In this document: one piece after another, positions 8,378 to 57,819 of the stretch
Numbering within the stretch: the first letter of the stretch is position 1
Layout of the letters: every line of letters starts with the position of its first letter
Origin: an uncultured Alphaproteobacteria bacterium
Lineage (GTDB): Bacteria > Pseudomonadota > Alphaproteobacteria > Rhizobiales > Xanthobacteraceae
DNA: 64,000 nucleotides
Assembly: GCA_963820805.1 (NCBI GenBank)
Contig: CAWGBH010000004.1
Span: 3,367-67,366, forward strand
Direction: 5' to 3'
Position numbers and translations under genes: made by a program
The notes under the pieces: generated by a model
What the model was told of the DNA's origin: nothing
Seen by the model: the letters and a program-made list of their open reading frames with translations, nothing else
The model's database searches: none

Positions 8378-9148
8378 GCGAGTCTTCTTTCTCCGGCCCG
8401 CGAGGCAGTCGGCTGTAGGTAATCGTGCACGACTTTGCCGAGGCCAAGAGTCTAGATCGGCGACGAAGTGAACGGCAGAGACGACTTCGAGCACCGGCAG
8501 CTCGGCGACAGGCGCCAGCGCGTGCGGATTAAGCTGCAGCGAGCCCGGCCCCTCCCAGGCGCCACGCACCTTGATGCCCTCGAGCCGGTACTCGACGAGT
8601 TCGCAGATGCGCGCGGCGCCATCGACGTGCGGAATGACCTTGATCAGGAAATTCGGCGCACCTAGGACTCCTGCGATCTGCGAAGCATCGAGCGTGCGGT
8701 GCTTGTAACCCATCGTGCCGGTGACCACGCGTACTGGGCCATAGTCAAGCGTGCCGACGAGTGTGTCCTTTTCAACTTTGAGACTCGGGCTCGCAAGCTT
8801 CTTGGGGAAGCCCCAGAGCTCACGCCCGCCCGCGATCGCCGACTCGTCGTCGAGGAACATGCAGTGCGTGTAGTTCCCACGCCGACCGTTGAGTGATACC
8901 GGAATCACCTGGCCGCTCTCAGTGTAGTCGCCGAAGCCCGTGGAGTTTGGCATACGGATGAATTCGTATTTCACTAGAGGTGCGTCGAGCGCCAGTGGTT
9001 GAGGCACGATCCCGCGCAGCCGCTTCGGGTCAGTGCGATAGGTAATGATTAGGTATTCGCGATCGGTGAATCGGTAAGGTCCCGGCGGATAGGCAGGGCT
9101 CGTTAGTGGCATTGCAAATGCGCGCTTCCGGATCTCTTCTTCAGTCAT
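8365..9148 (-). pseudogene. adc: Acetoacetate decarboxylase, frame disrupted near 8451-8453; as written it reads through in frame into bdhA
   Basis: [41 protein letters not shown]... matches the ADC family. The conserved C-terminus (T/A)[11 protein letters not shown] is present only in the +1 frame after ...HFVADL. Confidence 0.8.
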
Positions 9149-9161
9149 AGTATCCTCCGTT

Positions 9162-10352
9162 TTATTCGCGGCCGTCGATGTGTAGGTCGAAAGTGAAGAC
9201 GCCGTCTGGTGTCTTGGGTCGCCTGAGCACCTCCGGATGACGCAAAGTACGCACGGCATCGTGGTAGCCGGCGCGCCAATGCTCCTCCATGCTACGGCGG
9301 GAGAATTCGTAATCTTTCGAGTCGCCCTCATAAGTTTTTGCGCGGTAGATGAGCTGGATAATGTTGTAAGCCTTATGCTCGATCATTGGTTGCAGCACCT
9401 CCATCTCCGGGCTATTGCGCACATGCTCGGGCATGTCGGCGCTCAGCTTAGTCGCTGCATGGCGCATTCGTTGCATTCGCTTAAAGCTGCTCGTGCTGGC
9501 GCGGGTTCGGCTTGAATACATGATCTCCTTTCGGCGCGTCTCGACTTCCGCTAAGTGCCGCGGGAAATCGCCGCGTGCGCTCCACAGATCCACTTGAAAG
9601 GCAAGCGTGTCCTGCCGCGGCACGTTTTCGACAACCCATTCCAGCGGAGTGTTGGAGACGAGGCCACCATCCCAATAATGCTCGCCCTCAATCTCAACGG
9701 GAGGAAAACCGGGCGGCAGCGCGCCGCTGGCCATGACGTGCTCGGGACCGATCCGGTGCGTCTCTGTGTCGAAACAGACCAGATTGCCCGAACGCACATT
9801 GACGGCGCCGACCGTGAAGCGCACCGAGCCCGCATTAATTCGGTCGAAATCGGTGAGGCTTTCGAGAGTGGATCGCAGATTTGTCGTGTCGTAGTAGCTC
9901 GTCGCCCCGGTGCTACCACTCGGAACGAACCATGGCGTCATTGGCCGCGGGGTGAAGAATCCAGGCGCGCCCCAAACTAAAGTCATTGCAGCGTTCGCCT
10001 GGTTCATCCAGCCGCGCAGAGTGTCATTGCCTTTCGACATCGGTGCCAACAAAGCGTCGAGGCCGTGCGGGGCGACCGTGATTAGCTCCCAGAATTTCCG
10101 TAGTTGCTCGACGCGCCGCTCGGGCGCATTGCCCGCGATCAATGCGCCGTTAATCGCGCCGATAGAAATGCCGGTCACCCAATCGGGTTGCAGATCGGCC
10201 TCGACGAGCGCCTCATATACGCCGGCCTGATATGAGCCGAGTGCGCCACCACCTTGCAGCAGCAGGGCAACGCAGTCGAAAGGGGGCCGAGCCGGCGCGC
10301 GGCGTCGCTTTGCGGCCATAGCTGTGATGGCAGAAGAGCGAAGCTGTTCCAT
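9162..10352 (-). CDS. Patatin-like phospholipase
   Basis: Oxyanion motif LQGGGALG, GxSxG as GISIGA, and the catalytic DGG motif (YWDGGLVSN). Confidence 0.85.
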
Positions 10353-10398
10353 AATGATTTTTTCCTTTGTTGACTACGTGGGCGGCAGCGCATGCGCG

Positions 10399-13300
10399 TC
10401 AGCTGTGAGCTAGCGCAGGAACTCCGGTTGAAATAGTCGGCTGCCATTCCGAAATCGGCTTGATCCGGAACCATGCAACGTACAGCGCTGGCAGAAATAC
10501 GAGGGTAAGCAGCGTCGCGACCACGAGCCCGCCCATCACCGCATAGGCCATCGGTCCCCAGAACACAGTGGGCGCGATCGGTATCATGCCCAGAATCGCG
10601 GCGGCAGCGGTCAGCAGGATTGGTCGCAGCCTATGCTGCGTGGCTAAGATTACCGCGTTCCATGGGTGCTGGCCCGCGGTGATTTCGGTATCAATCTGGT
10701 CAATGAGGATCACCGAGTTGCGGATCACCATTCCGATCAACGAGACGACCCCGAGTATCGCAACGAATTCCATAGGTGAGCCCGAGACGAGCAGCGCGGC
10801 GGCGACACCGATGAGAGCCAGCGGCGCGGTGGCGAGCACAAGGAACAGCCGCTGAAAGCTCTGCAACTGCGCCATGAGAATCGTGACCATGATCAGGATC
10901 ATGATCGGGAAGACTGCGAATATGCTGGCCTCCGCTTTGGCACTTTCCTCGACAGTGCCACCTGCGACCACGTCATAACCTGTCGGCAGTTTCGACTTGA
11001 AAGCGGCGAGATCGGAGGAGAGCGCTTTTACAACGGTTGCCGCCTCCAGGTTCGGCGCGGTATCGGCTTGCACCGTGATGGTTGGCAGACGATGGCGGCG
11101 CCAGACGAGCGGCGGTTCGACCCCGTAAGAGAGCTTAGCGACTTGCTCAAGCGGCACCGATCGTCCACCAGGTACGCTGATCATTAAGCTGCGCAGAGTC
11201 TCCAGCTTGGCGCGCTCGTCGGGAATGGCGCGGGCGACAATGTCGATCAAATAGATATCGTCGCGCACCTGGGTGACGGTCGTGCCGGATAAGATGGCAT
11301 TTATGGTCTGACTCAATGCTTGCGAACTGATACCGAGCGCCCGAGCCCGGTCCTGATCCACCTGGACACGGATAACTTTGGACGGCTCGTTCCAATCGAA
11401 GTTAATGTTTCGGGCATTTGGAGTCTTGCGAAGCAGTGAGGCGAAGTTCTGCGCGATCTCACGGACCTTCACGGGATCCGGGCCGCTGACGCGGAATTTG
11501 AGCGGCCACCCGACCGGCGGCCCAAGCTCCAAAGGGCTGACGCGCGGTTGTACCTGTTCGAACTCGGACTGTTGCAAAGCGGCGAGGATCCGCTGTTGCA
11601 CGGCCGGGCGAATCTTGGATCCTTTCGTGACTATGACGCCTTGCGCGAAGAAGTCGTTCGCGAGCTGCTGATCAAGCGGCAGGTAGAAGCGGATAGCGCC
11701 ACTGCCGATGTAAAAGGACCAGCGTTCGATGTCCGGGTCAGTCTTAAGGACTTTCTCGAGGTCATCGACGACCTTGCGTGTTGCATTGATCGTGGAGCCT
11801 TGCGGGAGCGTCAGGTCAACGAGAAGTTCTGGACGGTCGGAGCTCGGGAAGAACTGCTGCTGCACGAACTGCATGCCGCCGAGAGCTGCGACGAACAGCA
11901 AAACGGTGGCGCCGATCACCCAGTGTCTCAGATGCAGCACGCGATCGAGCATGGTGTTGAACGCGCGCGCGAAGCGCGACGGCTCATGGCCATGCCCCTT
12001 TATCTTGTCGGGCAGGATGAAAACGCCTGTCAGGGGAGTGAACAGCACGGCCACGAACCACGATGCGGTCAACGCAATGCCCACGACCGCGAATAGCGTG
12101 AAACAGTACTCGCCGGCGCTACTAGCAGCGAACCCCACCGGGACAAATCCTGCGATGGTGACGAGCGTGCCGGTCAGCATCGGGAAGGCTGTAGATTTAT
12201 AGGCAAATGTTGCGGCCGTAACCTTGTCGCAGCCCTCTTCGAGCTTCTTGATCATCATCTCCACCGCAATCATCGCGTCGTCGACCAGAAGCCCAAGCCC
12301 GATAATGAGTGCGCCGAGCGAGATACGCTGCAGGCTCACTCCGGCAATTTTCATGGCGACGAAGGTGATCGCAAGGACCAGCGGAATCGCAATCGCGACG
12401 ACGACGCCAGGCCGCCAGCCCAGCGCAAGAAAGCTCACAGCCAATACGATAGCGATGGCCTCAATCAAGGTTTTGATGAACTCGCCTACGGCGTCTTCAA
12501 CGACTTCCGGCTGGTTGGCCACCAGATGCGATTCGATGCCCGCCGGTAGATCGGCCGTCACCTTGGCAAGGCGCTCTTTGAGGTGCTCACCGAAGGCCAA
12601 GACGTCGCCGTTCTTTCGCATCGAGACGGCGATGCCAATGGCTGAGCGGCCGTTGTATCGAAACATTGGCTGCTGTGGGTCAGCGTACCCTCGTTGCACT
12701 TTCGCGATGTCGCTCAGCCGAAAGAACCGGCCATTGAAACGGAAATTGATGGCTTGCAGGCTCTCTTCTGACGTGAACTGACCCGAGACGCGAATCGCGA
12801 TCTTTTCTGCATCTGAATCCACCGTCCCGCTCGGCTGAATCGCATTTTGCGCCTGTAGGGTCTGTATCAGCTCGGAAATGTTGAGCCCCATGGCGGCGAG
12901 CTGCTGGGTCGAGAACTCCAGATAAATTTTCTCGTCCTGGGTCCCGAGCAGGTCGATCTTGGCAACGTCGGCAACGCCGAGCAGCTCGGCTCGCACGCGC
13001 TCGGCATAGTCGCGCAGCTCCCGATGGGAGAAACCATCCGAAGTCAGCGCGAAGATGAGGGCATATGTGTCGCCGAACTCGTCGTTGAAGAAGGGACCCT
13101 GCACGCCTTGGGGCAAGGTCTGCTTGATGTCGCCGACCTTTTTTCGGACCTGGTACCAGAGATCGGGCACGTCCGAGGCGCGGGTGGAGTCCTTCAGATT
13201 GACGAACACCACGGACTCGCCGGGCTTGGTGTAACTTTTTTGATAGTCGATGTTCGGCAGCTCTTCGAGCTTCTTCTCGATGCGGTCCGTGACTTGCTGC

Positions 13301-13488
13301 ATCGTTTCCAGCGTGGTGGCGCCAGGCCAAAGCGTCTTCACCACCATGGTCTTGATGGTGAAGGGCGGATCCTCGTCACGGCCGAGCCGGCTATATTCGA
13401 AAATTCCGGCGAGCGCGACGACCAGCATCAGGTAGACGACAAAGCTCTTATGCTCCAGCGCCCAGCGGGAGAGATTGAACGTCTTCAT
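10399..13488 (-). CDS. RND efflux transporter permease (AcrB/HAE1-type, 1029 aa)
   Basis: Length, 12-TM architecture and the typical N-terminus MKTFNLSRWALEHKSFVVYLMLVVALAG...PPFTIKTMVV. Confidence 0.95.
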   Translation of the reverse strand: MKTFNLSRWALEHKSFVVYLMLVVALAGIFEYSRLGRDEDPPFTIKTMVVKTLWPGATTLETMQQVTDRIEKKLEELPNIDYQKSYTKPGESVVFVNLKDSTRASDVPDLWYQVRKKVGDIKQTLPQGVQGPFFNDEFGDTYALIFALTSDGFSHRELRDYAERVRAELLGVADVAKIDLLGTQDEKIYLEFSTQQLAAMGLNISELIQTLQAQNAIQPSGTVDSDAEKIAIRVSGQFTSEESLQAINFRFNGRFFRLSDIAKVQRGYADPQQPMFRYNGRSAIGIAVSMRKNGDVLAFGEHLKERLAKVTADLPAGIESHLVANQPEVVEDAVGEFIKTLIEAIAIVLAVSFLALGWRPGVVVAIAIPLVLAITFVAMKIAGVSLQRISLGALIIGLGLLVDDAMIAVEMMIKKLEEGCDKVTAATFAYKSTAFPMLTGTLVTIAGFVPVGFAASSAGEYCFTLFAVVGIALTASWFVAVLFTPLTGVFILPDKIKGHGHEPSRFARAFNTMLDRVLHLRHWVIGATVLLFVAALGGMQFVQQQFFPSSDRPELLVDLTLPQGSTINATRKVVDDLEKVLKTDPDIERWSFYIGSGAIRFYLPLDQQLANDFFAQGVIVTKGSKIRPAVQQRILAALQQSEFEQVQPRVSPLELGPPVGWPLKFRVSGPDPVKVREIAQNFASLLRKTPNARNINFDWNEPSKVIRVQVDQDRARALGISSQALSQTINAILSGTTVTQVRDDIYLIDIVARAIPDERAKLETLRSLMISVPGGRSVPLEQVAKLSYGVEPPLVWRRHRLPTITVQADTAPNLEAATVVKALSSDLAAFKSKLPTGYDVVAGGTVEESAKAEASIFAVFPIMILIMVTILMAQLQSFQRLFLVLATAPLALIGVAAALLVSGSPMEFVAILGVVSLIGMVIRNSVILIDQIDTEITAGQHPWNAVILATQHRLRPILLTAAAAILGMIPIAPTVFWGPMAYAVMGGLVVATLLTLVFLPALYVAWFRIKPISEWQPTISTGVPALAHS

Positions 13489-14571
13489 TTGCTGTCACTC
13501 CTGGCCAAGTTTGCGTCGGCAAGCCGCACCTTTTGCCCGACCGTCAGCTTATTCACCCCTGCTGTAACGACGATGTCTCCTTGGGCCAGGCCGGCGGCGA
13601 CGATTGCAGTATTTGCCTCATAGCGCGCAACCGTGACGGTCCTCAGACTGAGACTGCTCGATTGCTGATCGAGCACCCAGACTGCCGGTGAACCATTCTT
13701 TTCAAAAAGCGCGGAGAGTGGCAGCGCGACAGCGAGAGCGGCATTTCCCTTCAGACTGGCGCTGACACTCATGCCGAAGCGGAGCTGCGGCGGCGAGTTA
13801 TTCAACGTGACTTTGACCGTGTAGGTACGCGTCACCGGGTCGGCGACAGGAGACATTTCCCGCACCACTCCCTCGACGGTCAGATCTGGGTTTGACAGCG
13901 GCCAAACGATGACCTTGGGATGAAGTCTTGCTGATATCGGTGAGGGCCGTCTCGGCGATGTTGAAGACGCCGTCCTTGTCGTCTGGTCGCGCCAGCTTCA
14001 ACACCATCTGTCCGGCGTTTACATTCTGGCCTGCTTCGGCACCGACGGCAGTAATCACGCCGTCGAAATCGGCCCTGAGCATGGTGTAATTGAGCTGATC
14101 GCGGGTGAGGTTGAGATTGGCCTTGGCAGCTTTGAGCCGCGCTTCCGCAGCTTGCATGTTCTGAAGGGCGGTGTCGTAAGTTGCCTTCGGCGTCCAGCCA
14201 TCCTTCAAAAGCTTGGCTTGGCGCTCCTCCGTCCCCTGCGCATTGACGAGCGCTGCCTCGGCGGAACTAACGTCCGCTTCCGCTGAGCGGAGGTGATTTT
14301 GATAGTCTTGGGTGTCAAGCGTGGCCAGCGTGTCGCCTTGCTTGACCGAAGCTCCGACATCAACAAGCCGGGAAAGCACCTTGCCGGCGACACGGAATGA
14401 CAGATCGCTCTCGTAACGCGGCTTGACTTCGCCGATGGCGTGGCGGTCTTCGGCGATAGATTTGGGATCGACGACGAGTGCGCGGACCAGCTGGAGTGTC
14501 GCCGGCGCGTCTTCTGGCTTGCAGCCGGCAAGCACCAGAAACGCGAGAATAAGGAGAAAGCAGGACCGCAT
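13485..14571 (-). pseudogene. RND periplasmic adaptor (MFP), split by a net +1 frame disruption near 13.92 kb
   Basis: ORFs 13798..14571 (lipoprotein signal LAGC plus coiled-coil hairpin) and 13485..13868 (VREMSPVADPVTRTYTVKV...) are the two halves of one adaptor. PKVIVWPLSNPDLTVEG continues in the +1 frame. Confidence 0.85.
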
Positions 14572-14595
14572 GTTCGTGCTCCAACGGAGTATCTA

Positions 14596-14714
14596 ATGTT
14601 GACGCTGACAACTTCATAAGCTTGGCAAGTTGTCATTGTCAACATTTGGACCGGTTTTCGCGGGGATGGCTGATATGCATAAATGTTGACATCGCCAACT
14701 TCGTCGGCTAAATG
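14596..14714. promoter_or_regulatory. Divergent promoter/operator region: three copies of a 19-bp motif ATGTTGAC-N5-CAACTT plus the tetR promoter
   Basis: Motifs at 14596-14614, 14627-14645 (inverted) and 14683-14701. TTGACA (14686-14691)-N17-TAAATG faces tetR. On the other strand TTGACA-N17-TTATGA faces the pump operon. Confidence 0.6.
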
Positions 14715-14741
14715 TCCCGGAAATGGATGGTTTGACGAGCG

Positions 14742-15425
14742 ATGCCTAAGCACCAACCCCCAGAGCGCCCTTACCACCACGGCGACCTGCGCCGTTCAAT
14801 CGTCAAAGCGGCCCTTGAAATCCTGGGTGAAACGCAAAGTTTTGACTTTTCGCTGCGCGAACTGGCCCGGCGAGCGGGCGTCAGTCACAACGCCCCTTAC
14901 AAGCACTTTGCCGACAAGCGTGAACTATTCGCGGCGGTCTCGGCGGCAGGGTTCGAGATGCTAACGAAGCGCATGGCCCGCGAAATTGCGGGCATCGGCG
15001 ATGCTCGTAAACAGTTGTTCGCGATGCTGCGCGCCTACATTGATCAGGGAGTTGAAAACCCGGCGCTTTATAGCCTGATGTTCGGAGGCTACCTCAGCGG
15101 CCCGGATCGTGGCCGGCCTACCATCGAATTGGCGGAAGCCGAGAAGACCAAGACCATGCTTGCCGACGTTATCATTGCCGGGGGCCTCGGACGCGCCATC
15201 CCGCATATCGCCCGCAACGAACGAAAAATCGCCGGTGCGATTCTGGCGTGCTGGTCCCTCGTGCATGGACTCACGCTGCTGCTGGCGGATGGCCTCGTCG
15301 GCCCGAAGAAAAAATCTGGCGCGCTAGCTGACAGCCTAGTGCAGGGGCTCCTCGACGGACTAGCGGGTGAATTGCCGATGTTACCGCCTGGCACCTGGGT
15401 TGGCCCTCGAGTGCCTACTTCGTAG
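14742..15425 (+). CDS. TetR/AcrR-family transcriptional repressor
   Basis: N-terminal HTH FSLRELARRAGVSHNAPYKHFADKRELF. Divergent from the RND operon. Confidence 0.9.
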   Translation: MPKHQPPERPYHHGDLRRSIVKAALEILGETQSFDFSLRELARRAGVSHNAPYKHFADKRELFAAVSAAGFEMLTKRMAREIAGIGDARKQLFAMLRAYIDQGVENPALYSLMFGGYLSGPDRGRPTIELAEAEKTKTMLADVIIAGGLGRAIPHIARNERKIAGAILACWSLVHGLTLLLADGLVGPKKKSGALADSLVQGLLDGLAGELPMLPPGTWVGPRVPTS

Positions 15426-15509
15426 TCCGCGGTCGCCTTCACTTGCGGCGACCGGGTGTTCGGATCATAGGCCAATGACGGACATGCGCACTGTCGGACA
15501 TTCGCCACT

Positions 15510-16304
15510 TTATTCGACTTGGTGGCCCTGCGCCGGATGAATAGCTGTGAATGCAACTGCGCGGGGACTATTTAGCACAAACAAAGGACGATAGTTACGA
15601 GCGTCCTCAGCGGTGACGATCGCCATTGTCAGATTATCGAGGATGAGCCACTGCTGCTCGTAGAGAACCGCCACGACCGCATGCTCCGTCCGCCGTTTGT
15701 CGTCTTCTACAATGACAAGCCGGAGATCGTCGGCCTGGATGCCCAATGCGCGAAGCGCGGCATATTTCACGATGGCATAGTCCTCGCAATCGCCGCTCCC
15801 ACTGCTGAGCGTTTGAAGCGGAGACGCCCAGTAATCGGCATCACCGTATTGGGCCCAATCGCTAGCGGGCTTGACACTCATGTTGACCGCACGATTGAGC
15901 CATCCCAGCCGGGTGCGCCCCTCATGTTGTCGGCCAAGTTCAACGATCGACAAAAAGCGGCGTTCAGCCTGCGAGCATGTGCTTTCACCAGAGCGGCACG
16001 CCGCGAGCGCCCTCTCGTCAGCGGAAATGCGGGATTCAAGCTCGTTCCACTTCGCCGACATCTCTTCAGTCGGAACGCTCGTTGGATTAAATGCTCGGGG
16101 CGGCAAATTAGCGAAATTAAGTGAAGCGAGCTGTAACGGAGCAAGATCGCCCAGCCTATAGCTCAGAGCCAGGAGGCTACGTGGCGCGCTAATCTGATGC
16201 GTATTGGCGAAGGCAGCGCTGTAGCAACACGCGAAAAAGCAGACATATGCCATCCGGATTAAAGCGAACATGATTGACCACTTCACACGGCGTCGACGAA
16301 GCAA
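15510..16304 (-). CDS. Bacterial transglutaminase-like cysteine proteinase (BTLCP, LapG-like, Peptidase C93)
   Basis: Signal sequence plus Cys-His-Asp triad contexts SGSGDCEDYAIVKYAAL, TEHAVVAVLY and WLILDNL. Confidence 0.8.
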   Translation of the reverse strand: MLRRRRVKWSIMFALIRMAYVCFFACCYSAAFANTHQISAPRSLLALSYRLGDLAPLQLASLNFANLPPRAFNPTSVPTEEMSAKWNELESRISADERALAACRSGESTCSQAERRFLSIVELGRQHEGRTRLGWLNRAVNMSVKPASDWAQYGDADYWASPLQTLSSGSGDCEDYAIVKYAALRALGIQADDLRLVIVEDDKRRTEHAVVAVLYEQQWLILDNLTMAIVTAEDARNYRPLFVLNSPRAVAFTAIHPAQGHQVE

Positions 16305-16328
16305 AATCGGTGAGCCAGGATGAACATG

Positions 16329-16658
16329 TTAGCCTCCTTCAGTGCGATGAGTATTGGGCGGCCAATTGTTGGTGCGCTCGTCGTGCTGCGGTAGCTTCTG
16401 CGACGATGCTTGATCCACCGGCACATGGGGCGCGATGACCGAGTGGCAAGCGGCCGATATCACGTCTTTATTGGCGACAAGACAGCTGAATACCCGGTCA
16501 CGGTTTGGAATTGCACCCGAGCAAAATTGGAACGCATCACCAATACAGGCTTGCTTCTCTTCCAAAGTTTCAGCACTCGCGCTGACAGTGGTGCTCAATA
16601 TCCAGACGGCGCGGAGTAAGATGACGAGCGTGCGCGCAATCTTCGTTCTGGCAGCCAT
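16329..16658 (-). CDS. Small secreted cysteine-rich-repeat protein
   Basis: Signal peptide, then ACIGDAFQFCSGAIPNRDRVFSCLVANKDVISAACHSVI (C-x3-D..C..G..CL..LS..C pattern). GGAGA lies 7 nt before ATG comp. 16656-16658. Sits 24 nt upstream of the BTLCP gene. Confidence 0.55.
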   Translation of the reverse strand: MAARTKIARTLVILLRAVWILSTTVSASAETLEEKQACIGDAFQFCSGAIPNRDRVFSCLVANKDVISAACHSVIAPHVPVDQASSQKLPQHDERTNNWPPNTHRTEGG

Positions 16659-16720
16659 AATCGTATCTCCTGACATCTAGGCCGGACGCCGTGCCCGCAA
16701 CGTGCCGCAGCGAAGGCTGA

Positions 16721-16825: not shown

Positions 16826-16871
16826 CGTTTGGCTAAACATGAATGACTTCAGTGCTTTGCTGGCCCTTCCG

Positions 16872-16944: not shown

Positions 16945-16988
16945 TGATCGCTGGATTTCAGTTTTGAGCGGAGAATGTTGCAACGCGT

Positions 16989-26498: not shown

Positions 26499-26561
26499 TG
26501 CGCGCAGGATCTGGGTCGCCTCGTATGCTAAACTGCGCGGCATATGGAAAGGACGAGCAAA

Positions 26562-26858
26562 ATGAAGCATCGATTGATCACTATAGTATTTGCAATTTCG
26601 CTTCTTCCGGCAGCTGCAAATGCGCAGGTCATTATCGATATGGGCGCATTCACCTGCGGCCAATATTTGACAATGTCGCCCTCAATGTCCCGTGATTTCT
26701 CTGCGTGGATGAGCGGATGGTTTAGTTATCAGACCCGCCGGACGGTGGTGGATGTGCTTGTGCATGAGAAAAATATCGCGAATGTGAAATCTTGGTGCCA
26801 ATACCATCCGCAAGCAAGCGTGATGAGCGCCTTGCAGAACTCGATCGGCCCACAGTGA
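26562..26858 (+). CDS. HdeA/HdeB-like periplasmic protein (paralog 1)
   Basis: Signal peptide MKHRLITIVFAISLLPAAANA, then IDMGAFTCGQYL...WMSGWFSY...VKSWC (two conserved Cys). Confidence 0.5.
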   Translation: MKHRLITIVFAISLLPAAANAQVIIDMGAFTCGQYLTMSPSMSRDFSAWMSGWFSYQTRRTVVDVLVHEKNIANVKSWCQYHPQASVMSALQNSIGPQ

Positions 26859-26884
26859 TATCTTGGACCCACCGGAGAAAAGCC

Positions 26885-27184
26885 ATGAGACGGAATGTTC
26901 TTTTCGTAGCAGCGACTTTGCTGTTGGCCGCTTCACAGCCAAGTGCTGCTCAGATCAGCGTCGATATGAATCAGATCACTTGCGGAGGCTGGCTCGGATA
27001 CAGTCCAGAGCAACGAGATTTCGTCCGCTTTTGGATGAGCGGTTACTACAATGCGGCGGCGAACAGCAACATCTTGAACTACGACCGTTTTCAAAAGAAT
27101 TCCGCAAAGATCACAACCTACTGCAAGAAAAATAAGTCCAAAACGCTGCCGACGGCGATTAAGAACGTCGGCTTGTCGCAGTGA
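26885..27184 (+). CDS. HdeA/HdeB-like periplasmic protein (paralog 2)
   Basis: MRRNVLFVAATLLLAASQPSAA, then VDMNQITCGGWL...WMSGYYN...ITTYC, the same architecture as the upstream gene. Confidence 0.5.
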   Translation: MRRNVLFVAATLLLAASQPSAAQISVDMNQITCGGWLGYSPEQRDFVRFWMSGYYNAAANSNILNYDRFQKNSAKITTYCKKNKSKTLPTAIKNVGLSQ

Positions 27185-33324: not shown

Positions 33325-35045
33325 ATGCGCGCTGCAAGAGCGATCTGGTTCGGTATCTCAGCATTGGCATTCGCAATCGTCTCGGTTATTTCGCCGGCAT
33401 CCGCGCAACAAGGAGCAAAACCTAACATCGTTTTCATCATGGGTGACGACATCGGATGGATGCAACCGAGCATCTATCATCGCGGTTTGATGGTTGGAGA
33501 GACGCCGAACATCGACAAGATCGGTAATGACGGCGCGCTCTTCACCGACTACTACGCAGAACAGAGCTGCACCGCAGGGCGCAACGCTTTCTTCACTGGC
33601 ATGCATCCGCTGCGAACCGGCATGATCCCGCCGCAGCTTCCGGGCAGTCCGTCTTATCTGAAGCCTAGTACGCCAGCGATCGCCAAGGTGCTGATGGATC
33701 TGGGGTACACCACTGGCGAGTTTGGCAAGAATCATCTGGGCGATCACACCGATGCGCTGCCGACCGCGCACGGATTCCAGGAATTTTGGGGCTATTTATA
33801 TCACCTGGATGCGATGCAAGGCGTGAGCTTCCCCGACATCAACAAAACTCCAACGCAGCAGACCGTCGCGCCACCGTGCAAGAACACGCCGGTCCCTGGC
33901 CTGGCGGAGGTGCCGGGAGCCGTTGATCCCAAAACCACGATCTGCTTGATGCCGCCACGGCCGGTCCTGTGGTGCAAATCCTCGGACGGCAGCTCCAAGA
34001 ACCAGACTTGCCAGGACCAGGGTCCGCTAACACTGGAGCGCTCGAAGACCGTGGACGAGGAAATCTCCGCCAAGGTCGTCGACTTTCTCGATCGCAACGA
34101 CCCGAAAAAGACCAACAAGCCATTCTTCGTCTGGTACAACCCGGCCCGCATGCATATCACTACCGTATTGCCGGACAAATACCTGGCGATGGTGGGTGAG
34201 CCGGGCGGTAAGGACTGGGGCGTCAACGAAGCCGGCATGAAACAGATGGACGACAATATCGGCGTCGTTCTGAAGAAGCTCGACGACATGGGCCAGACCA
34301 ACAACACCATCGTCGTTTTCACCACCGACAACGGCGCCGAGACCATCACCTTCCCGGATGGCGGCACCACGCCTTTCAAAGGCGGCAAGCTGACCACCTG
34401 GGAAGGGGGCATGCGCGCCCCGATGGTGATTCGTTGGCCTGGCGTCATCAAGCCCGGCACTGTCAAAAACGACATGTTCGCCTCTCTCGATTGGATGCCC
34501 ACCCTGGCCGATATTGCTGGCGGCCCGAAGGGCGACGGACTGAAGAAGCAGATAGAAGCCGGCCAATATCCCGGCTTTGTGAAAACGACACTTGATGGAG
34601 TTCGACCAACGCGATTTCCTGGAAGGTAAGTCACAGAAGTCGGCACGCGATGTGTTCTTCTACTATTCCGGCAAGGACCCTTCAGCGGTCCGATACAAGA
34701 ACTGGAAGATGTATTTCGCGATGGTGTCCGACGCGCCGGCGGGTTTCATTGCGGGTGTGCTCCCGTACCACTGGACCCAGGTCGTCAACGTGAAACGTGA
34801 TCCGTTCGAGATTTCCATCGGCCAGCAATACAAGACTTCTCTTTGGTATGGGCGGGGCGATTGCTTCACCGTCCACCGCCTATGTCTATGACTGGAACAT
34901 GCTGCCCATCGGCCAAGCACTGTGGCTGAAGGAGCTCGAGAGCTACATCCCGTTCCCACCGCTGCAAAATCCGGCAAGCTACAATCTTGAACAGGTCATG
35001 CAGCAAGTCCGGGACATGAAGACGTCAAGTCACGCAGGCGAATAA
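33325..35045 (+). pseudogene. Arylsulfatase (formylglycine-type), broken by two net +1 frame disruptions
   Basis: Signal peptide, NIVFIMGDDIGW, and the CTAGR (C-x-A-x-R) modification motif. The protein continues across ORFs 33325..34629, 34592..34891 and 34797..35045, with junctions near 34600-34604 and 34831-34845. Confidence 0.85.
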
Positions 35046-44034: not shown

Positions 44035-45453
44035 TCAGCGTGGGCGGTGGCCAGCATTGCGGCGCGGCTCGCCCGGACGCTGCATAAATGTAACATTTTC
44101 GATGCCGTTTGGCTCCCCCGCTGCAGCCTGCTGGCTGTGCGCGGTATGACCGTTATTGCTTGGGCGGCCTTTGCCGGCATTGTGAGAGCGGTGGCCATTA
44201 TGGCCGGGACGGCCGTGACCGCCGCCATGTCCGCCACCATGTCCACGCGGGCGCTTGCCGCGATGCGGCCGGCCGCCGTGGCGGCCCTCCGCCAATTGCG
44301 GTGCGGCATGTGTCACCGGCTTGCCGGTGCGACGGTCCGTCGCCGGAATCGTCATGCGGATCAGCCGTTCAATATCGCGAAGATAGGCGCGCTCCTCGTG
44401 GTCGCAGAACGAAATCGCTACGCCGTCAGCGCCTGCACGTGCGGTGCGGCCGATACGGTGAACGTAGCTCTCGGGGATATTCGGCAGGTCGTAGTTGACC
44501 ACGTGACTTACGCCATCGACGTCAATGCCACGAGCGGCGATATCCGTTGCAATGAGAGTGCGCAACTTACCGTCACGGAATGCCGCGAGCACACGTTCGC
44601 GCTGATTTTGCGATTTGTTGCCGTGGATTGCTTCGGCGGCGTGGCCGGCTTTTTGCAGGCCGCGAACGACTTTATCGGCGCCGTGCTTGGTGCGAGTGAA
44701 CACCAGGACCCGGTTGGTCTTTTCGGTCTTGAGGACCTCGACCAGTAACGACGGTTTCGAAGCCTTCTCGGTAAGGATGACGCGTTGCTCGATGCGATCG
44801 ACGGTCGAGGCTTGCGGAGTTACCGCCACGCGGGCCGGATCGCGAAGCATCGCATCGGCGAGCCGGGTGATTTCCTGCGGCATGGTGGCCGAGAAGAAAA
44901 GCGTCTGCCGCGCTTTCGGAAGCATGGCGACGATCTTCTTGATGTCGTGGATGAAACCCATATCGAGCATGCGATCGGCTTCGTCGAGTACCAGCACTTC
45001 AATCTGGTCGAGGCGCAGCGCGCGTTGATGAACCAAATCGAGCAGGCGACCCGGCGTTGCGACCAAAACCTCGACGCCGCGGGCAAGGGCACGAACCTGC
45101 CGGTTGATCGGTACACCTCCAATGGCCAATGCTATCTCGAGCGGGCGGAGGTGCCGGCCATAGACGCGGAAGCTATCGGCGATCTGGCTGGACAATTCGC
45201 GCGTCGGCGAAAGTACCAGCACGCGACAGGATTTCTGCGCGGGACGCTGACGCTTCTTGAAAAGGTGGTTCAGGATCGGTAGCGCGAAGGCTGCGGTCTT
45301 ACCGGTTCCCGTCTGCGCGATGCCAATGACATCGCGGCCTTGGACAGCAATCGGAATAGTCTGATCTTGAATGGGCGTGGGGGTGACGTATTTCTCTTCG
45401 GCGAGGGCGCGAAGGATCGGCTCTGCGAGGCCGAAGTCGTTGAATGAAGTCAA
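44035..45453 (-). CDS. DEAD-box ATP-dependent RNA helicase (RhlE-like) with a His/Gly/Arg-rich tail
   Basis: Q motif [40 protein letters not shown]. Tail is ...[22 protein letters not shown]... Confidence 0.9.
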
Positions 45454-45827
45454 AGAGTTCTCTTTCTTATACGGCGAAGCGGCCGTGCTGCCTATTGCAG
45501 CCGGCGGAATCGCGGGGTTTTTAAAGACATCCCGCGTGGCCAGGGTTGTCGGCTTGTTGGAGAAACGGAAGAGGCGGGGCGAAATTCGTTTTAAAGAGTT
45601 TCGTGCACGCAGCCCGCAAACCCGAGACCGGGTTTTTCATCCGCTGGGGATCATATGACAGCCTCGGATGTCCTTTTCAAGGCATCATCACCCCCTTATT
45701 CCGCCGAATGATGAATAAAGTGGTCGCAGGCATGCCGTTGTCCCCAATGGACAACGCGTGGGAGATCGGGGAATGTCGGCCCGAAAATCCTGTTCTGGGG
45801 CGTATTAGACAGTTTGGAGCCTTCGAA

Positions 45828-47021: not shown

Positions 47022-47033
47022 GGAGTGTAGGGA

Positions 47034-47875: not shown

Positions 47876-48935
47876 GTGGCGTCCGTTGAGTTACGAGGTT
47901 TGACCAAGCGATATGGTCACGTCGCGGTGGTCGATGATGTTTCCCTCACCATCGAGCATGGCCATCTGGTCTGTTTGCTGGGTCCTTCGGGTTGCGGCAA
48001 GACGACGACGCTGCGGCTGATCGCCGGTTTCGTCGAACCGGATGAAGGCGAAATTCGCGTCGGCGACAAACTTGTATCCTCGCCGACCGGCACCTTACCG
48101 CCTGAACGGCGTAATATGTCGATGATCTTCCAGAGTTATGCGTTGTGGCCGCATATGACGGTGGCCGAGAACATTATCTACGGCCTGAAGTTACGAAAGT
48201 TGGATCGCGATACTATTGCCAAAAAGCTGAATGCCATTCTGTCAACGACACAACTCGCGGCTGCTGGCACAGCGCTACCCTGGTGAATTGTCGGGTGGTC
48301 AGCAGCAGCGCGTGGCGCTCGCCCGAGCGTTGATCGTCGAGCCGGAGACGCTATTACTCGATGAGCCACTTTCCAATCTCGATGCCAATTTGCGTGAGGA
48401 AATGCGGTTCGAGGTGCGGCGCTTACACGATACGTATCGCTATACGACGGTTTATGTCACTCACGACCAATCAGAGGCGATGACGACCGCCGATCTCATA
48501 TGCGTGATGAATGCGGGGAAAATCGAGCAATCGGGCAGTCCCGAGGAAATCTATGACCGGCCACGTTCGGAATTCGTCGCGCGCTTTATCGGATCGAGTA
48601 ATGTAATTAAAGGCAAAGGCTTGGATGCTTCCCGCGTCGACTTTGCGGGTACTCCGTTGCGATGCGTCGGAGAGAAGATCAAATCTGGCGCGCCAACGCC
48701 GATTTCCGTACGTCCGCACGATATCGTCATTTCCGCATCTCAACGACAAGGCGAAAACATCGTGTCGGCGACAGTGGTGCGGCAGGTCTTTCTCGGGAGC
48801 GGGCGGGATTATATGGTTGAGGCCAAGGACGGCACGCAACTGCGCGTGCTCACGACTGCGGGTGAGAATATTCCGCAAGGTAGCGCCGTCTGGCTGCACT
48901 TACCGCCTGAGCGTTGCCGCGCGCTAAGCGCGTAA
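47876..48935 (+). pseudogene. ABC-transporter ATP-binding protein (PotA/FbpC-type), net +1 frame disruption near 48257-48260
   Basis: Walker A GPSGCGKTT lies in ORF 47876..48286. The signature LSGGQQQRVALARAL, Walker B LLLDEP and the C-terminal OB/TOBE-like part lie in ORF 48231..48935. Confidence 0.85.
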
Positions 48936-50051: not shown

Positions 50052-50101
50052 TCGAGTCATTACGACAGTTGGACGCGGCGGTATGAGCTGCCGCGTCCAC
50101 A

Positions 50102-51829
50102 GTGAAATCTGATGCCATGACCATCGCCTTGCCTGCGCGCGCGGAACGTCGCTTCGGGGTCGACCTCTCGAAGCCCGTACTCTATTCGTTTGCGGTTATT
50201 TTGTGCGCGCTGATCGTGCTGCCGATGTCATGGCTGCTGCTCTACAGCCTGACTGACGCCAAAGGCGCTTTCACGCTCGCTAATTTTTATCGGCTGTTCA
50301 CCGAGTCGTCATTTATCGATCCGCTGATCACCACCTTTATCCTCGCTACGTCATCGGCTGTCATATGTTGCGCTGTAGCGGCCCCGATGGGGTGGCTGGT
50401 AGCGCGCACCGACCTGCCGTTCAGTGGCCTGATCCGCGCCCTGGTCACGGCATCATTCGTGACGCCGCCATTTCTCGGCGCAATTGCCTGGGAGTTGCTG
50501 GCGGCGCCCAATAGCGGTCTCTTGAACAAGCTCGCGCGCGAGTGGTTTGGCATGGCGCCGGATGAGCATCTGTTCAATATCTACACTTTGACCGGCATCA
50601 TCTTCGTCATCTCCTGCTACACGTTTCCATACGTGTTTGTGCTGGTCGCCAATTCACTCGATCGCACGCCAGGTGAACTTGAAGACGCCTCTTCAATTCT
50701 CGGCGGAGGGCGCTGGTACACCGCGCGACGCGTTACTATTCCGCTGGTGATGCCGGCATTGCTTGCCGGTGCGCTGGTGGCCTTCTTGCAGGCAATGACG
50801 TTGTTCGGTTCGCCGGCGATTTTGGCGCTGCCAGCGGGTTTTCACACCATGACCACTAAAATCTGGAGCCTGTTCCAGTTTCCGCCCAAGCCCGAGCTTG
50901 CGGCCGCTGCTTCGCTTCCGCTCCTCGTGCTTACTGTCATTCTTCTGCGCGCTGAGAATATGATTCTTGGGCGCCGCGGCTATTCGGTTGTCGGTGGAAA
51001 ATATGGCGCGCCGCGATTGATCCCGCTGCACCGATGGCGCTGGCCGGCTTTTGCGTTGTGCCTCGTCGTGTTGCTCAACCCGGTATTTTTGCCATATGCC
51101 GCACTGTTCAATGCCGCATTCTCGCCGGTCGCCAGCACCTTATTGACCATCCACAATTTCACGCTGCAGAACATCAATTTCGTTTTGTTTGAATTGTCGG
51201 CAGCATCGCTCGCGCTCAAGAATACTGTGATCCTCGGCACTGCGACGGCCACAATCGGGACTGCAATTGCGCTTGTGATCGCTTATGTCACCGCGCGTCG
51301 GGCGGTTGCAGGCTGGCGCGTCCTCGGCTTCCTCGCCACTGCACCGATTGCCATTCCGGGGATTGTGCTCGGGGTAGGCCTATTTCTGAGCTATACGCGG
51401 CCGCCATTCGTCCTCTATGGCACTTTGTGGATTCTGCTGATCGCGTTCGTAACGATCGCGCTACCGTCGGCCTATCAGCAACTGCAAGCGGCGTTCCGCA
51501 CAATCCATCCGGAACTGGAGGACGCGAGCCGTATTCTCGGAGCTACGCGGCTGCGGTCCCTATGGCAGATCACCGCGCCGCTCTTACGCACCGGTGTGAT
51601 CGCAACATGGTGCTTCGTATTTGTCGGGGTGATGCGCGAATTGTCGGCGGCGATCATTCTCTTTACCTCGGAAACCAAGGTAGTCTCGGTGTTGATCTAC
51701 GATCTCAATGAAAGTGGCGATCTCGGCGCTATTGCGGTAATCGGGCTTGGCATGTTGTTGATCACGTTCGCAGTCGTGATCGCCGTCAATCGAATTCCCG
51801 GCTTCGGAACCGTGCGCTTTCGCACCTGA
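50102..51829 (+). CDS. Fused two-domain ABC-transporter permease
   Basis: 575 aa, about 12 TM, with two EAA-type loops (...LEDASSILGG..., ...LEDASRILGATR...). The start codon is uncertain (GTG 50102 or ATG 50117). Confidence 0.9.
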   Translation: MKSDAMTIALPARAERRFGVDLSKPVLYSFAVILCALIVLPMSWLLLYSLTDAKGAFTLANFYRLFTESSFIDPLITTFILATSSAVICCAVAAPMGWLVARTDLPFSGLIRALVTASFVTPPFLGAIAWELLAAPNSGLLNKLAREWFGMAPDEHLFNIYTLTGIIFVISCYTFPYVFVLVANSLDRTPGELEDASSILGGGRWYTARRVTIPLVMPALLAGALVAFLQAMTLFGSPAILALPAGFHTMTTKIWSLFQFPPKPELAAAASLPLLVLTVILLRAENMILGRRGYSVVGGKYGAPRLIPLHRWRWPAFALCLVVLLNPVFLPYAALFNAAFSPVASTLLTIHNFTLQNINFVLFELSAASLALKNTVILGTATATIGTAIALVIAYVTARRAVAGWRVLGFLATAPIAIPGIVLGVGLFLSYTRPPFVLYGTLWILLIAFVTIALPSAYQQLQAAFRTIHPELEDASRILGATRLRSLWQITAPLLRTGVIATWCFVFVGVMRELSAAIILFTSETKVVSVLIYDLNESGDLGAIAVIGLGMLLITFAVVIAVNRIPGFGTVRFRT

Positions 51830-53208: not shown

Positions 53209-53217
53209 TTTGGGATC

Positions 53218-53973: not shown

Positions 53974-54060
53974 CGTGCGCGCGGCGGGGCAGGGTGGCCG
54001 CGCCAGCGCTTAAGTGCTAATCCATCGTCCACGACCGTTCCGGGTAACAATGAGGTTCCT

Positions 54061-55488: not shown

Positions 55489-55499
55489 GAGAATCTCCG

Positions 55500-57819
55500 T
55501 TACTTTGCGGCCACTGCCTTCTGGCAAGCCTCCCACACCTTCGCGGGCGTGGCTGGCATGTCCATGTGATCGGCCGCACCATTGGGAATTGCATTTGAGA
55601 TTGCGTTCATCACGGCCGCGATTGCGGCCGTGGTCCCGGCCTCGCCGGTGCCTTTGACACCGAGCGGATTGCTCTTGGCCGGCGCCGGGCGCAACGCTTC
55701 GCGCAGTTCGATTGGCATCGTGTGCGCGTGCGGCATGCCGTAATCCATGAAGGATCCGCTCACCAGCTGACCGCTGGTGGAATCATAGATCGCGTTTTCG
55801 ACCAGCGCTTGGCCGAGGCCCTGCGCGAGAGAGCCATGCACCTGTCCCTCGACGATCGTCGTGTCGAGCGGATTGCCGCAATCATCCACCGCCGTGTAGG
55901 TGACGAGATCGACTTGGCCGGTATCGGGATCGATCTCGACTTCGGCGATATGACAGCCGTTGGGGAACGTGAGAGGCGTTTCGGCCTTGTCCTTGGTGTC
56001 AAGACTTCTCGCCCAGTTCTTTGGCCCTCTGCGCAGTCTCGAACAGCGAAATCTTGCGGTCAGTGCCGACCACTTCGAATTGCCCGTTGCGATACTGAAT
56101 ATCCTGCTCGGACGCCTCTAGCAGCGCTGACGCGACCTTCCTGCCCTTGGCCAGCATCACGTCGGCCGTGTGTACGATGGCGTTGCCCGCGCACATCGCG
56201 GAGCGTGAGCCGACCGACGCGTTGCCGGTTAACCCCAGCGCGGTATCGCCGTGCCGGTGCTCGATTTTGGCGGCGTCGATACCGAGTTTGTTTGCGAGCA
56301 GTCGCCCGAACACGGTGGCGTGGCTCTGTCCCGTCGATTGGACGTTGCAGCCGAGGATAAGCTTCTCACCGTCAGGAAATGCCACCGACGCCATCTCCAT
56401 CGGCGTTGCACCGGAATGCTCCAACATGCAGGAGATCCCGATGCCGCGGAATTTTTTACGGCGCGCTGCCTCACGCTTACGTTTGTTGAAATTGGCGTAA
56501 TCGGATAGCTCCAGGGCCTGTTCAACAATGCCGGGGAAATCGCCGCTGTCGTAGGTGTTGATCGGTGTTTTGAACGGCATGGCCGATGTCGGAATGAGGT
56601 TTTTCTTGCGCAACCGCAACGGGTCGATGCCGGTCACGCGCGCGGCTTCCTCGACTACCCGCTCCAGTGCGTAATTCGCTTCAGGCCGCCCCGCGCCGCG
56701 ATAGGGCGCAATGGGAACCCGGTTGCTGAAATAGCACGCGACCGACACGGCGACTTTGGGAATTCGGTACATTCCGGGCAGACAGCGTGCGAAATTGTTG
56801 GTGTTGATGTTGACGCCGGCGTTGGCGACATAGGCGCCCTGATTGCACATATGTCGCACGCGCAACGCGATAAATTTGCCCTTATCGTCGAGGGCTAATT
56901 CGGCCTCGGTAATTGTGTCGCGTGCTTGCGCGTCGCTAATGAAAGCCTCCGATCGCGTCGATTGCCAGTGCACTGGCCGGCTAGTTTTGCGCGCGGCCAC
57001 CAGCAGCGCAACGTATTCGGGATAGACCGTTGTCTTCATTCCGAAGCCGCCGCCAACATCGTCGGTGATGACTCGCAGTTTTTCGTTCGGCACGCCCATG
57101 ATGGAAGCCGCCTGGCTGCGCAAGGCATCGGCGCTCTGGGAACAGGCACGCAGCGTGTAGCTCTCCGTTGCGGGGTCGTACTGGCCGGTGGCGCCGCGCG
57201 TCTCAAGCGAGGCCACCACCATGCGCTGGTTTACGACGCGAACGCGTGCGACGTGCGGCGCATCCTTGATGATCTGTGCGACCTCGCGCTCGTTCTCTTC
57301 GCTCGGCACCGGCCCCGGCCAGTCGACGCAGAGATTGCCGGGCGCATCGGGAAATAACTGTGTTGCAGCCTTCATCGCCGTGTCGAGATCGACGACCGGC
57401 GTCAACTCCTCGTACTCGACCTGGATGAGGTCAACGGCATCCTGAGCTGCGCCGTTAGTCTCGGCGACCACCATCGCGACCAGGTCACCGACATGCATAG
57501 TCGTCTCGGCGAGCACCGGGCGGAAAGGCATGGCCATCTTGGCACCACCGCGTCCGCCGACTGGTGGATGGCGTGCGATGCTGCCAATGCCGGCTGCCTT
57601 GATGTCCTCGGCGGTGAGCACCGTCAGCACGCCTTTGGCTTTGCGCGCATGATCCGCGTTGACTGATACGACCCGCGCATGTGCGTGCGGCGAGCGCACA
57701 AAGGCGGCGTAGGCGGTGTTAGGCAAGCGCGGGTCGTCCATGAAACGGCCGCCGCCGCGTACGAGTGCATCGTCTTCGACGCGTAGCGTGTGCTTTGGGC
57801 GGGTAAGGCTGGCTGTCAT
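55500..57819 (-). pseudogene. Molybdopterin-binding large subunit of the xanthine-DH/CO-DH (CoxL-like) family, net +1 frame disruption near 56000-56008
   Basis: ORF 55999..57921 carries the N-terminal and Mo-pterin domains. LDTKDKAETPLTFPNGCHIAEVEIDPDTGQVDLV..DDCGNPLDTTIVEGQVHG continues in the frame of ORF 55500..55889. No small or medium subunit genes are adjacent. Confidence 0.85.

Follow-up and report, generated by a model that had tools for sequence, protein, structure and literature searches.

Single-base insertions, mostly at GANTC sites and most probably nanopore sequencing errors, break five genes in a Xanthobacteraceae metagenome contig

The stretch of DNA analysed here in full (64 kb, hereafter "the window") carries five genes with interrupted reading frames, namely those encoding acetoacetate decarboxylase (adc), an RND membrane-fusion protein, an arylsulfatase, an ABC transporter ATPase and a CoxL-like molybdopterin dehydrogenase. 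The original prediction listed six +1 breaks in these five genes, and we found all of them where it had placed them, the protein continuing each time after a +1 shift. A seventh insertion of the same type, absent from that list, lies in non-coding DNA, so that the window holds six coding insertions and one non-coding. The genes and break sites are as follows, with the extra base in brackets:

8365..9148, minus strand: adc, repaired extent
8448..8453: adc break; the plus strand carries an extra T (8453) after GAGTC, CT[A]GACTC on the coding minus strand
13485..14571, minus strand: RND membrane-fusion (adaptor) gene, present as two ORFs, 13798..14571 and 13485..13868
13922..13927: RND adaptor break; GA[A]GTC on the plus strand and GACT[T]C in the coding direction (minus strand), with 13923 or 13924 as the extra base
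33325..35045, plus strand: arylsulfatase gene, split into three ORFs; 572 aa when repaired
34598..34603: sulfatase break 1, GAGT[T]C; the extra T is 34601 or 34602
34834..34839: sulfatase break 2, GACT[T]C within CAAGACTTC; the extra T is 34837 or 34838
45455..45460: seventh insertion, an extra T at 45458 (GAGT[T]C), in the conserved leader of a DEAD-box helicase gene
47876..48935, plus strand: ABC transporter ATPase gene, present as two ORFs, 47876..48286 and 48231..48935
48254..48263: ABC ATPase break, CTCGC[G]GCTG; the extra G is 48259 or 48260; not a GANTC site
55500..57921, minus strand: CoxL-like molybdopterin dehydrogenase large-subunit gene, interrupted at 56006
56003..56008: CoxL-like break; within CAAGACTTC the plus strand reads GACT[T]C; the extra T is 56006 or 56007

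Three of the breaks share an identical 9-mer, CAAGACTTC, which occurs exactly three times in the window (13922-13930 on the minus strand, 34831-34839 and 56000-56008 on the plus strand), against 0.31 copies expected and with three or more copies in none of 100 shuffled sequences. The accompanying statement that the window contains no further AAGACTT or AAGTCTT 7-mer proved wrong: two more are present at 21-27 and 567-573, both inside an unbroken 278-codon YihY-like frame. The breaks do lie outside homopolymers, as had been claimed (none of the seven events falls in a run longer than two bases), yet five of the six coding insertions duplicate a neighbouring base.

In the assembly as it stands, the final 28 codons of adc are off-frame and its ORF runs on into the adjacent SDR gene (7601-8377), forming a fusion ORF of 576 aa (7601..9331 in the ORF listing). 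After repair the product is a 260-aa acetoacetate decarboxylase of the same length as in the related locus L001. The repaired RND adaptor has 361 aa, as in its relatives, and the repaired arylsulfatase shows 92% identity and 100% coverage to homologues of 571-572 aa. The part of the ABC ATPase 3' of the break is 98.7% identical to that of the related locus L002, and the 168 aa of the CoxL-like protein downstream of its break are 99.4% identical to the same relative. Overall, the repaired proteins are full-length, match their relatives in length and are ~92-99% identical to them. No decay is seen 3' of the breaks, the downstream identity (94-99%) being equal to or higher than the upstream identity, and none of the coding lesions is shared with any relative whose DNA was aligned at these sites.

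The identity of the extra base was established from the relatives' DNA. At the adc site L001 (94% nucleotide identity) reads GATCT-GACTC, hence the extra base is not the inner A of AGACT, as had been suggested, but the A of CT[A]GACTC (CTGACTC in L001), immediately 5' of GACTC. At the RND adaptor site the relatives read AAG ACG CAG (L082), ACG ACG CAA (L083-L086) or GAC TCT CAT (L001); since a Thr/Ser codon is conserved here, the window is expected to read AAG ACT CAT (K-T-H) rather than K-L-H. At sulfatase break 1 the relatives have GGC G-TC GAC, within a D-G-V-D-Q segment conserved in 36 of 40 homologues, and at break 2 AAG AC-G CTC TTT (K-T-L-F), with K-T-L retained in 39 of 40 and, counted over sequences, in 40 of 41. 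The CoxL-like site reads GTCAAGAC-TCTCGCCC in L002, and the extra base is missing from all 25 aligned relatives. The extra T of the helicase leader, whose GAGT[T]C lies 2-7 nt 5' of the TTG start of the gene (44035..45453, minus strand), is likewise missing from 29 of 31 aligned loci and is common only to the window, L017 and L023. At the ABC ATPase site, which reads TTQLALLAQRYPGELSGGQQQR when repaired, the extra G is absent from all 25 relatives listed out of the 34 aligned. Together, the DNA of close relatives (92-94% identical) and the conserved residues show that at four coding sites the surplus base belongs to the TT pair, as its second T (GACT[T]C or GAGT[T]C), and these alignments indicate that the parent sequence at the four sites and in adc is GANTC (GACTC or GAGTC).

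This result bears directly on the proposal that the breaks stem from AAGCTT (or AGCT), into which a methylation- or context-dependent error, or site-specific mutagenesis, would have inserted one central base, which would imply a HindIII/AluI-like methylation. Deletion of the central A/T does restore the frame and create AAGCTT at all three copies of the 9-mer; the protein, however, is not restored, because the relatives keep the Thr codon at the sulfatase (AAG ACG CTC) and adaptor (AAG ACG) sites and L002 reads CAAGAC-TCTC in the CoxL-like gene, which makes the Thr codon genuine and a T the surplus base. Moreover, the adc parent is CTGACTC rather than AGCT, no AAGCTT-like parent exists at sulfatase break 1 or at the leader site, and none of the 19 AAGCTT sites of the window is disrupted, although five of them have the same CAAGCTTC/GAAGCTTG context. 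Judged by the relatives' sequences, the AAGCTT model is already refuted, and we regard it as extremely unlikely.

In Alphaproteobacteria GANTC is targeted by CcrM, a cell-cycle N6-adenine methyltransferase. Among the six coding breaks, four fall within GANTC and a fifth (adc) directly adjoins it, to which the non-coding leader case is added. Only 1.8% of the window positions would yield GANTC upon deletion, and the probability of at least four such cases among six is ~2e-5; for the association as a whole P is ~2e-5 to 1e-6. In five of the six GANTC-associated events the insertion doubles the T opposite the GANTC adenine, adc being the exception; GANT[T]C reads G[A]ANTC on the opposite strand. 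The errors are concentrated in AAGANTC, with five among 14 such sites compared with one among the 116 GANTC sites in other contexts (Fisher p = 4e-5), and it is because the error favours the AAG-GANTC context that the 9-mer CAAGACTTC recurs. It is nevertheless far from deterministic, since 125 GANTC sites are intact, including one CAAGACTC (reverse complement at 11421). These 125 sites compare with 290 +/- 15 expected, a 2.3-fold depletion of the kind described generally for Alphaproteobacteria, most of which encode CcrM (PMC3973325). The motif is probably methylated in the source organism, as suggested by its Pseudolabrys/Xanthobacteraceae relatives, the conservation of CcrM (PMC3973325) and the depletion itself; no ccrM gene was found within the window.

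To place the window among related genomes, we compared it with 80 related loci obtained from a scan of genome contigs, assigned each locus to a nanopore or an Illumina class by its record title, and tallied frameshifts by frame-change detection in tblastn together with local multiple alignments. A blastn indel tally was dropped, as it missed the CoxL-like and ABC sites owing to gap placement in divergent alignments, and a stricter tally of isolated gaps was too insensitive. In the loci named like Microflora Danica (MFD) nanopore MAGs, 420 kb of coding sequence could be aligned and contain 31 frameshifts, of which 28 are +1, whereas the Illumina and isolate loci contain three in 358 kb; with classes taken from titles, the odds ratio is 8.8 (p = 6e-6). 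The window's own rate (six breaks in 64 kb) matches that of the nanopore class. On the same title-based assignment, deletion of the extra base restores GANTC in five nanopore events (N = A, C or G) and in no Illumina event in 358 kb. As GANTC accounts for only five of the 28 +1 events in the related nanopore MAGs, the source contig is unusually dominated by this motif. The leader insertion recurs in L017 and L023, both nanopore MAGs; it is absent from their nearest relatives and from the Illumina loci shown, and the window, L017 and L023 represent non-sister lineages, none of them being mutually nearest relatives. Conversely, L002, also a nanopore MAG, has G[A]ACTC where the window keeps GACTC. 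MAG quality is very uneven, with zero to nine frameshifts per 21-kb locus. A k-mer ratio test of GANTTC versus GANTC between nanopore and Illumina loci (odds ratio 1.18) was set aside, because the GANTTC excess is too large for errors alone and is thus confounded by taxon composition.

Several other regions and signals of the window were considered. The cluster of small ORFs at 23.5-29.2 kb, a candidate for hidden frameshifts, resolves by Pfam into separate small genes (two HdeA, DUF1330, LemA and others), and an apparent -1 break near the end of the gene at 50102..51829 is an insertion in L002, not an error of the window. A GC3 frame plot was too weak at this G+C content for detecting further breaks, an Rfam scan of the whole window gave no match, and a query with a five-segment chimeric protein was dominated by sulfatase matches and revealed nothing new.

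We conclude that the six gene breaks are almost certainly not real, being an artefact of assembly rather than biology, since five of the extra bases lie at GANTC, a motif miscalled in nanopore-only assemblies. They are very probably single-base insertion errors in a long-read MAG of a Pseudolabrys-like member of Xanthobacteraceae, with Oxford Nanopore as the most probable sole platform. A nanopore origin of the contig is suggested by its two nearest relatives, which carry names of the MFD long-read/Flye style, and by the frameshift rate and +1 bias, which match the nanopore class and not Illumina. The MFD MAGs were produced from R10.4.1 data with Guppy 6.x sup basecalling, Flye and one round of Medaka, used "to reduce indel errors", with no short-read polishing (PMC12313526). 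GANTC-linked errors have been reported in nanopore assemblies of agrobacteria and Brucella (PMC12710330, PMC12392509). Mechanistically, m6A would shift the pore current of k-mers that contain the modified base, and a basecaller untrained on m6A may sometimes add a base, most readily where AAG precedes on the 5' side; with modest coverage of the metagenome and one polishing round, the insertion could then be retained in the consensus. A miscall with such a preference, once retained, would produce the identical CAAGACT[T]C three times. The ABC ATPase break (extra G in GC[G]GC) has no link to GANTC and is taken to be an ordinary insertion of this assembly.

The strong association with GANTC would also be expected if the insertions were real and GANTC acted as a +1 hot spot in vivo in this lineage, leaving recent pseudogenes or phase-variable frameshifts, and the same leader site struck in three lineages is what a hot spot would predict. 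We consider this very unlikely, as the recurrences and the +1 excess are confined to nanopore-named MAGs, the Illumina assemblies of this clade lacking them, one 1.7-kb gene is struck twice, and frequent frameshifting at a regulatory motif that is 2-fold depleted would be strongly deleterious. We know of no insertion hot-spot mechanism at CcrM sites. The lack of decay downstream of the breaks also speaks against it: neither relaxed constraint nor a lesion common to relatives, the marks of genuine pseudogenes, is apparent in the aligned genes, with which very recent lesions would be compatible. A more elaborate version, in which CcrM-methylated GANTC, especially AAGANTC, is a genuine hot spot of single-base insertion in Xanthobacteraceae, causing real and possibly heterogeneous or reversible inactivation that short-read assemblies miss by collapsing to the majority allele, is in our view highly improbable.

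Programmed +1 recoding, by ribosomal frameshifting or transcriptional slippage at a common signal, would account for the uniform direction of all six breaks and for the 9-mer common to three of them, but we give it practically no credence. The 9-mer of the CoxL-like gene is on the non-coding strand, the instance at 45458 is 5' of a start codon, no homopolymer or slippery run is present, in adc only the final 28 codons are affected, and the shift occurs in none of the 25-40 orthologues examined per site. The prfB-type programmed +1 frameshift differs in the same respects, as the window sites are unshifted in orthologues and not consistently on the mRNA strand. A basecalling or polishing error that depends on k-mer context and not on methylation, with GANTC incidental to a k-mer of the AAGAC/AGAGT type, is unlikely, though it would explain the strong 5' AAG preference and the many intact GANTC sites, and methylation is itself only a probable property of this genome. 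Against it, G-A-N-T-C is invariant across events while N (C, G or A) and the flanks vary (ATGGAGT[T]CGA, CCGAAT[T]CGT, ACGAGT[T]CGG); the doubled base pairs with the presumably methylated A in five of the six GANTC events of the window and in the clearly resolved events of relatives; and in other Alphaproteobacteria nanopore errors linked to GANTC are on record and become fewer with methylation-aware models (PMC12710330). Our analysis supports the original prediction in rejecting ribosomal recoding and in favouring a sequencing-level cause, probably a methylation-dependent basecalling or assembly error.

In practical terms, all five genes (adc, the RND adaptor, the sulfatase, the ABC ATPase and the CoxL-like gene) are best regarded as intact; the breaks carry little biological weight but are of use in curation. 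Alphaproteobacterial genomes in catalogues of nanopore-only MAGs are expected to carry pseudo-frameshifts specific to the GANTC motif, which split or fuse genes (here adc with the downstream SDR gene), raise the number of apparent pseudogenes and bias the statistics of pangenomes and protein families. A reading frame broken at GANT[T]C or G[A]ANTC is a simple signature, open to automatic screening and correction, and such insertions could be removed by re-basecalling with methylation-aware models.

The classical cause of indels in long-read metagenomes is the miscalling of homopolymer length. The events described here are different, as all seven lie in runs of at most two bases and the events in relatives are mainly insertions (28 of 31) rather than mixed. 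In splitting genes at ~7-10 per 100 kb, the window resembles low-coverage long-read metagenomes, for which indel frameshifts are an acknowledged limit of long-read-only approaches (PMC13543314). The closest parallel is with modification-mediated nanopore errors (Dam GATC, Dcm CCWGG, restriction-modification motifs and GANTC), which recur at a short methylated motif, survive consensus polishing and do not appear in short-read assemblies; the error-associated motifs named for Alphaproteobacteria explicitly include GANTC, the motif at most of the window breaks (PMC12710330, PMC12392509, PMC10687267). The published cases are, however, mainly substitutions in high-coverage isolates, whereas the window has single-base insertions that double the T opposite a probable m6A, a marked 5' AAG preference, a MAG context and split genes. 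With the CcrM/GANTC system of Alphaproteobacteria the window shares the motif at its breaks and the 2.3-fold depletion, but our result has no bearing on the biology of CcrM, the motif being relevant here only through methylation that would disturb basecalling.

Three-frame translation bore out the six breaks predicted in adc, the RND adaptor, the sulfatase (breaks 1 and 2), the ABC ATPase and the CoxL-like gene, the protein going on in the +1 frame at 6/6. The 9-mer CAAGACTTC is indeed present in three copies, against an expectation of 0.31, and three copies were reached in 0/100 dinucleotide-preserving shuffles:

13922-13930, minus strand, CAAGACTTC
34831-34839, plus strand, CAAGACTTC
56000-56008, plus strand, CAAGACTTC

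The original prediction derived this 9-mer from AAGCTT with one added central base (A or T) and listed no further AAGACTT/AAGTCTT 7-mer in the window; two others, at 21-27 and 567-573, sit within an uninterrupted YihY-like frame of 278 codons. All 19 AAGCTT sites in the window are intact, including five in exactly the CAAGCTTC/GAAGCTTG context proposed as the parent.

Comparison with orthologues, which the prediction had proposed, revealed that the DNA of relatives lacks the extra base at the broken sites, but also that the extra base is not the central A/T. The repaired sulfatase (i.e. with the extra bases deleted) matches intact arylsulfatases of 571-572 aa, found in soil metagenomes and in Pseudolabrys MAGs, with 92% identity over its full length. 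At break 2 its homologues have K-T-L-F in 39/40 sequences and the DNA of relatives reads AAG ACG CTC TTT, so the window's AAG ACT TCT CTT is AAG ACT CTC TT plus one T; AAG CTT plus an extra A is ruled out by the same codons. At break 1 the relatives' GGC GTC GAC identifies the window's GGA GTT CGA C as GGA GTC GAC plus T. For adc and the adaptor we used L001, a related locus reached via its RND pump of 97% identity, with 94% DNA identity across window positions 7491-16289. Its adaptor (361 aa) and acetoacetate decarboxylase (ADC, 260 aa) genes are both intact, and the two claimed sites are the only coding single-base differences from the window. At adc the window has GATCT[A]GACTC (square brackets denote the extra base) and L001 has GATCTGACTC; at the adaptor a Thr codon is kept in five further loci, L082-L086 (AAG ACG or ACG ACG), so the window reads AAG ACT [T]CA T. 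A scan of genome contigs provided L002 (MFD05521.bin.1.214), with 92.6% identity across 41827-63201, which has GTCAAGAC-TCTCGCCC at the CoxL site, where the extra base is absent in 25/25 aligned relatives. Of the 34 relatives aligned at the ABC site, CTCGC[G]GCTG, the 25 displayed all have one G fewer.

Without the extra base, the sites contain GACTC (adaptor, sulfatase break 2, CoxL), GAGTC (sulfatase break 1) or, in adc, CT|GACTC, where the insertion lies directly 5' of GACTC and not inside it. The break in the ABC gene is unrelated to the others, though an insertion of the same assembly. GANTC is the target of CcrM, an N6-adenine methyltransferase conserved in most Alphaproteobacteria (PMC3973325), and wherever a base is doubled inside the motif it is the position-4 T, the partner of the opposite-strand, predicted methylated adenine. 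Positions that give GANTC on deletion make up just 1.8% of the window, and at least 4/6 breaks at GANTC would be expected with P ~2e-5, two equivalent positions being allowed per event. GANTC itself is depleted 2.3-fold (125 observed vs 290 +/- 15 expected), in agreement with the depletion reported generally in Alphaproteobacteria, most of which encode CcrM (PMC3973325). Since the majority of the window's GANTC sites are unaffected, the error is probabilistic; it favours a 5' AAG (5/14 AAGANTC sites affected vs 1/116 other GANTC sites, Fisher p = 4e-5), which explains why the same 9-mer recurs three times.

Alignment with L002 revealed a seventh insertion, outside the coding regions:

45455-45460, AAAGAGT[T]CTC, 2-7 nt before the TTG start codon of the DEAD-box helicase gene
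45455-45640, minus strand, leader of the helicase gene (44035..45453)

The same T is found in L017 and L023, two loci titled like Microflora Danica (MFD) long-read MAGs. Neither their closest relatives, L008, L010 and L020 (~88.5% identity to L017), nor those of the window, L002 and L004, have it, and it was not found in any short-read assembly of the alignment. This distribution makes the insertion homoplasic. The opposite case is GTCG[A]ACTC in L002, at a place where GACTC is intact in the window (47664). The leader is nearly invariant among ~30 Xanthobacteraceae loci that are otherwise 75-90% identical, and carries a conserved GANTC 2-7 nt ahead of the TTG start. No Rfam family matched anywhere in the window, leader included. 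The leader could have a regulatory role as yet uncharacterised, perhaps of the cold-shock type or methylation-sensitive.

The broken genes exhibit no sign of real decay. Repaired lengths equal those of relatives exactly (ADC 260 aa, adaptor 361 aa, sulfatase 572 aa), and identity to the nearest relative after each break is at least as high as before it.

Identity to the nearest relative on either side of the breaks
ADC: 93.1% upstream, 96.4% downstream
RND adaptor: 95.3% upstream, 95.9% downstream
Sulfatase: 91.3% upstream, 96.2% downstream, then 94.1% past break 2
ABC ATPase: 96.9% upstream, 98.7% downstream
CoxL-like: 97.6% upstream, 99.4% downstream

Frameshifts in related loci were scored by tblastn of the window proteins (repaired where needed) against 80 loci, as neighbouring matches in different frames; nanopore and short-read classes were inferred from record titles and contig-naming conventions.

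Frameshifts by class of record (assigned by title)
MFD long-read MAG type: 31 frameshifts in 420 kb of aligned coding sequence, 28 net +1
Short-read MAGs and isolates: 3 frameshifts in 358 kb of aligned coding sequence, 2 net +1

With classes so assigned, the long-read load is higher with an odds ratio of 8.8 (p = 6e-6), and the +1 bias is significant (sign test p = 5e-6). Five nanopore +1 events restore GANTC on deletion (G[A]ACTC, GAAT[T]C twice, GAGT[T]C and GAGTC[C]), as do 0 of the 3 short-read frameshifts in 358 kb. The window's own load (6 breaks per 64 kb, all +1) fits the nanopore class. Load is very uneven among nanopore loci (9 in L012, 4 each in L045 and L057, 0 in many), presumably tracking coverage or basecaller version. 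Several +1 frameshifts lie at CGATCG/GATC, not GANTC (L020 ~6790 and 13497, L012 ~4005, L045 ~17520, L039 ~3770), which hints at another class of methylation-motif error, specific to particular MAGs. L002, the closest GTDB relative, has non-GANTC insertions of its own, GGCGGC[A]GCC in an SDR gene (L002 11804-11808, window 53631) and one added base, A or C, within GGCAACCGTG (L002 9979, window 51807), near the end of the homologue of 50102..51829; in both the window sides with the majority.

The breaks are very probably no real biological feature but one more case of an artefact type already known. Their source is very probably insertion miscalling at m6A GANTC in a nanopore-only MAG, kept by polishing: the modified motif would lead the basecaller to insert a base, and such miscalls may survive polishing at metagenomic coverage. 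A k-mer error independent of methylation, a variant nested within the artefact explanation, is unlikely. Real mutations at a hot spot, for which the clustering at one motif might speak, are less likely still; to explain the breaks as six independent inactivations of extremely recent date, with five sharing one motif and two hitting the same gene, is not credible unless a dedicated mechanism exists. The AAGCTT model is refuted by the DNA of relatives, and the strand and position of the sites, along with their non-conservation, contradict programmed frameshifting. The original prediction was right to favour a sequencing-level cause over recoding, while the relatives' DNA proved both its motif and its inserted base wrong.

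The artefact also accounts for a false adc-SDR fusion: the last 28 codons of adc alone are out of frame, so the assembled ORF reads through into the SDR gene (576 aa, 7601..9331). These genes belong to a conserved cluster (7601-10352, minus strand) of a patatin-like lipase, acetoacetate decarboxylase and a 3-hydroxybutyrate-dehydrogenase-like SDR, in which the adc stop and SDR start overlap by 13 nt (8365-8377), identically in L001. Downstream of SDR, the intergenic CACTT[A]GCAG (7543) and a C run longer by one base (7587) differ from L001; at 94% identity, errors and real indels cannot be told apart. The comparison set offered no close relative for 1-7.5 kb, 16.8-33 kb and 35-41.8 kb, where further errors, especially substitutions and non-coding indels, would go unseen. 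The small ORFs clustered at 23.5-29.2 kb were considered as frameshift debris and rejected, being separate complete genes according to Pfam. At 26544-27184 (plus strand) two tandem genes of the HdeA/HdeB family of periplasmic acid-stress chaperones lie beside DUF1330 and LemA genes.

The case is of little interest for biology and of modest interest for curating genomes. Its signature, GANT[T]C at a frame break, is tidy and easy to screen for in alphaproteobacterial long-read MAGs. MFD MAGs were sequenced on R10.4.1 flow cells, basecalled by Guppy 6.2-6.5 in super-accurate mode, assembled with Flye and polished once with Medaka, no short reads being used (PMC12313526). For agrobacteria and Brucella, GANTC is on record as a motif linked to errors in nanopore assemblies, and the errors fall with methylation-aware models (PMC12710330, PMC12392509). 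The published errors are mainly substitutions, whereas those of the window are insertions.
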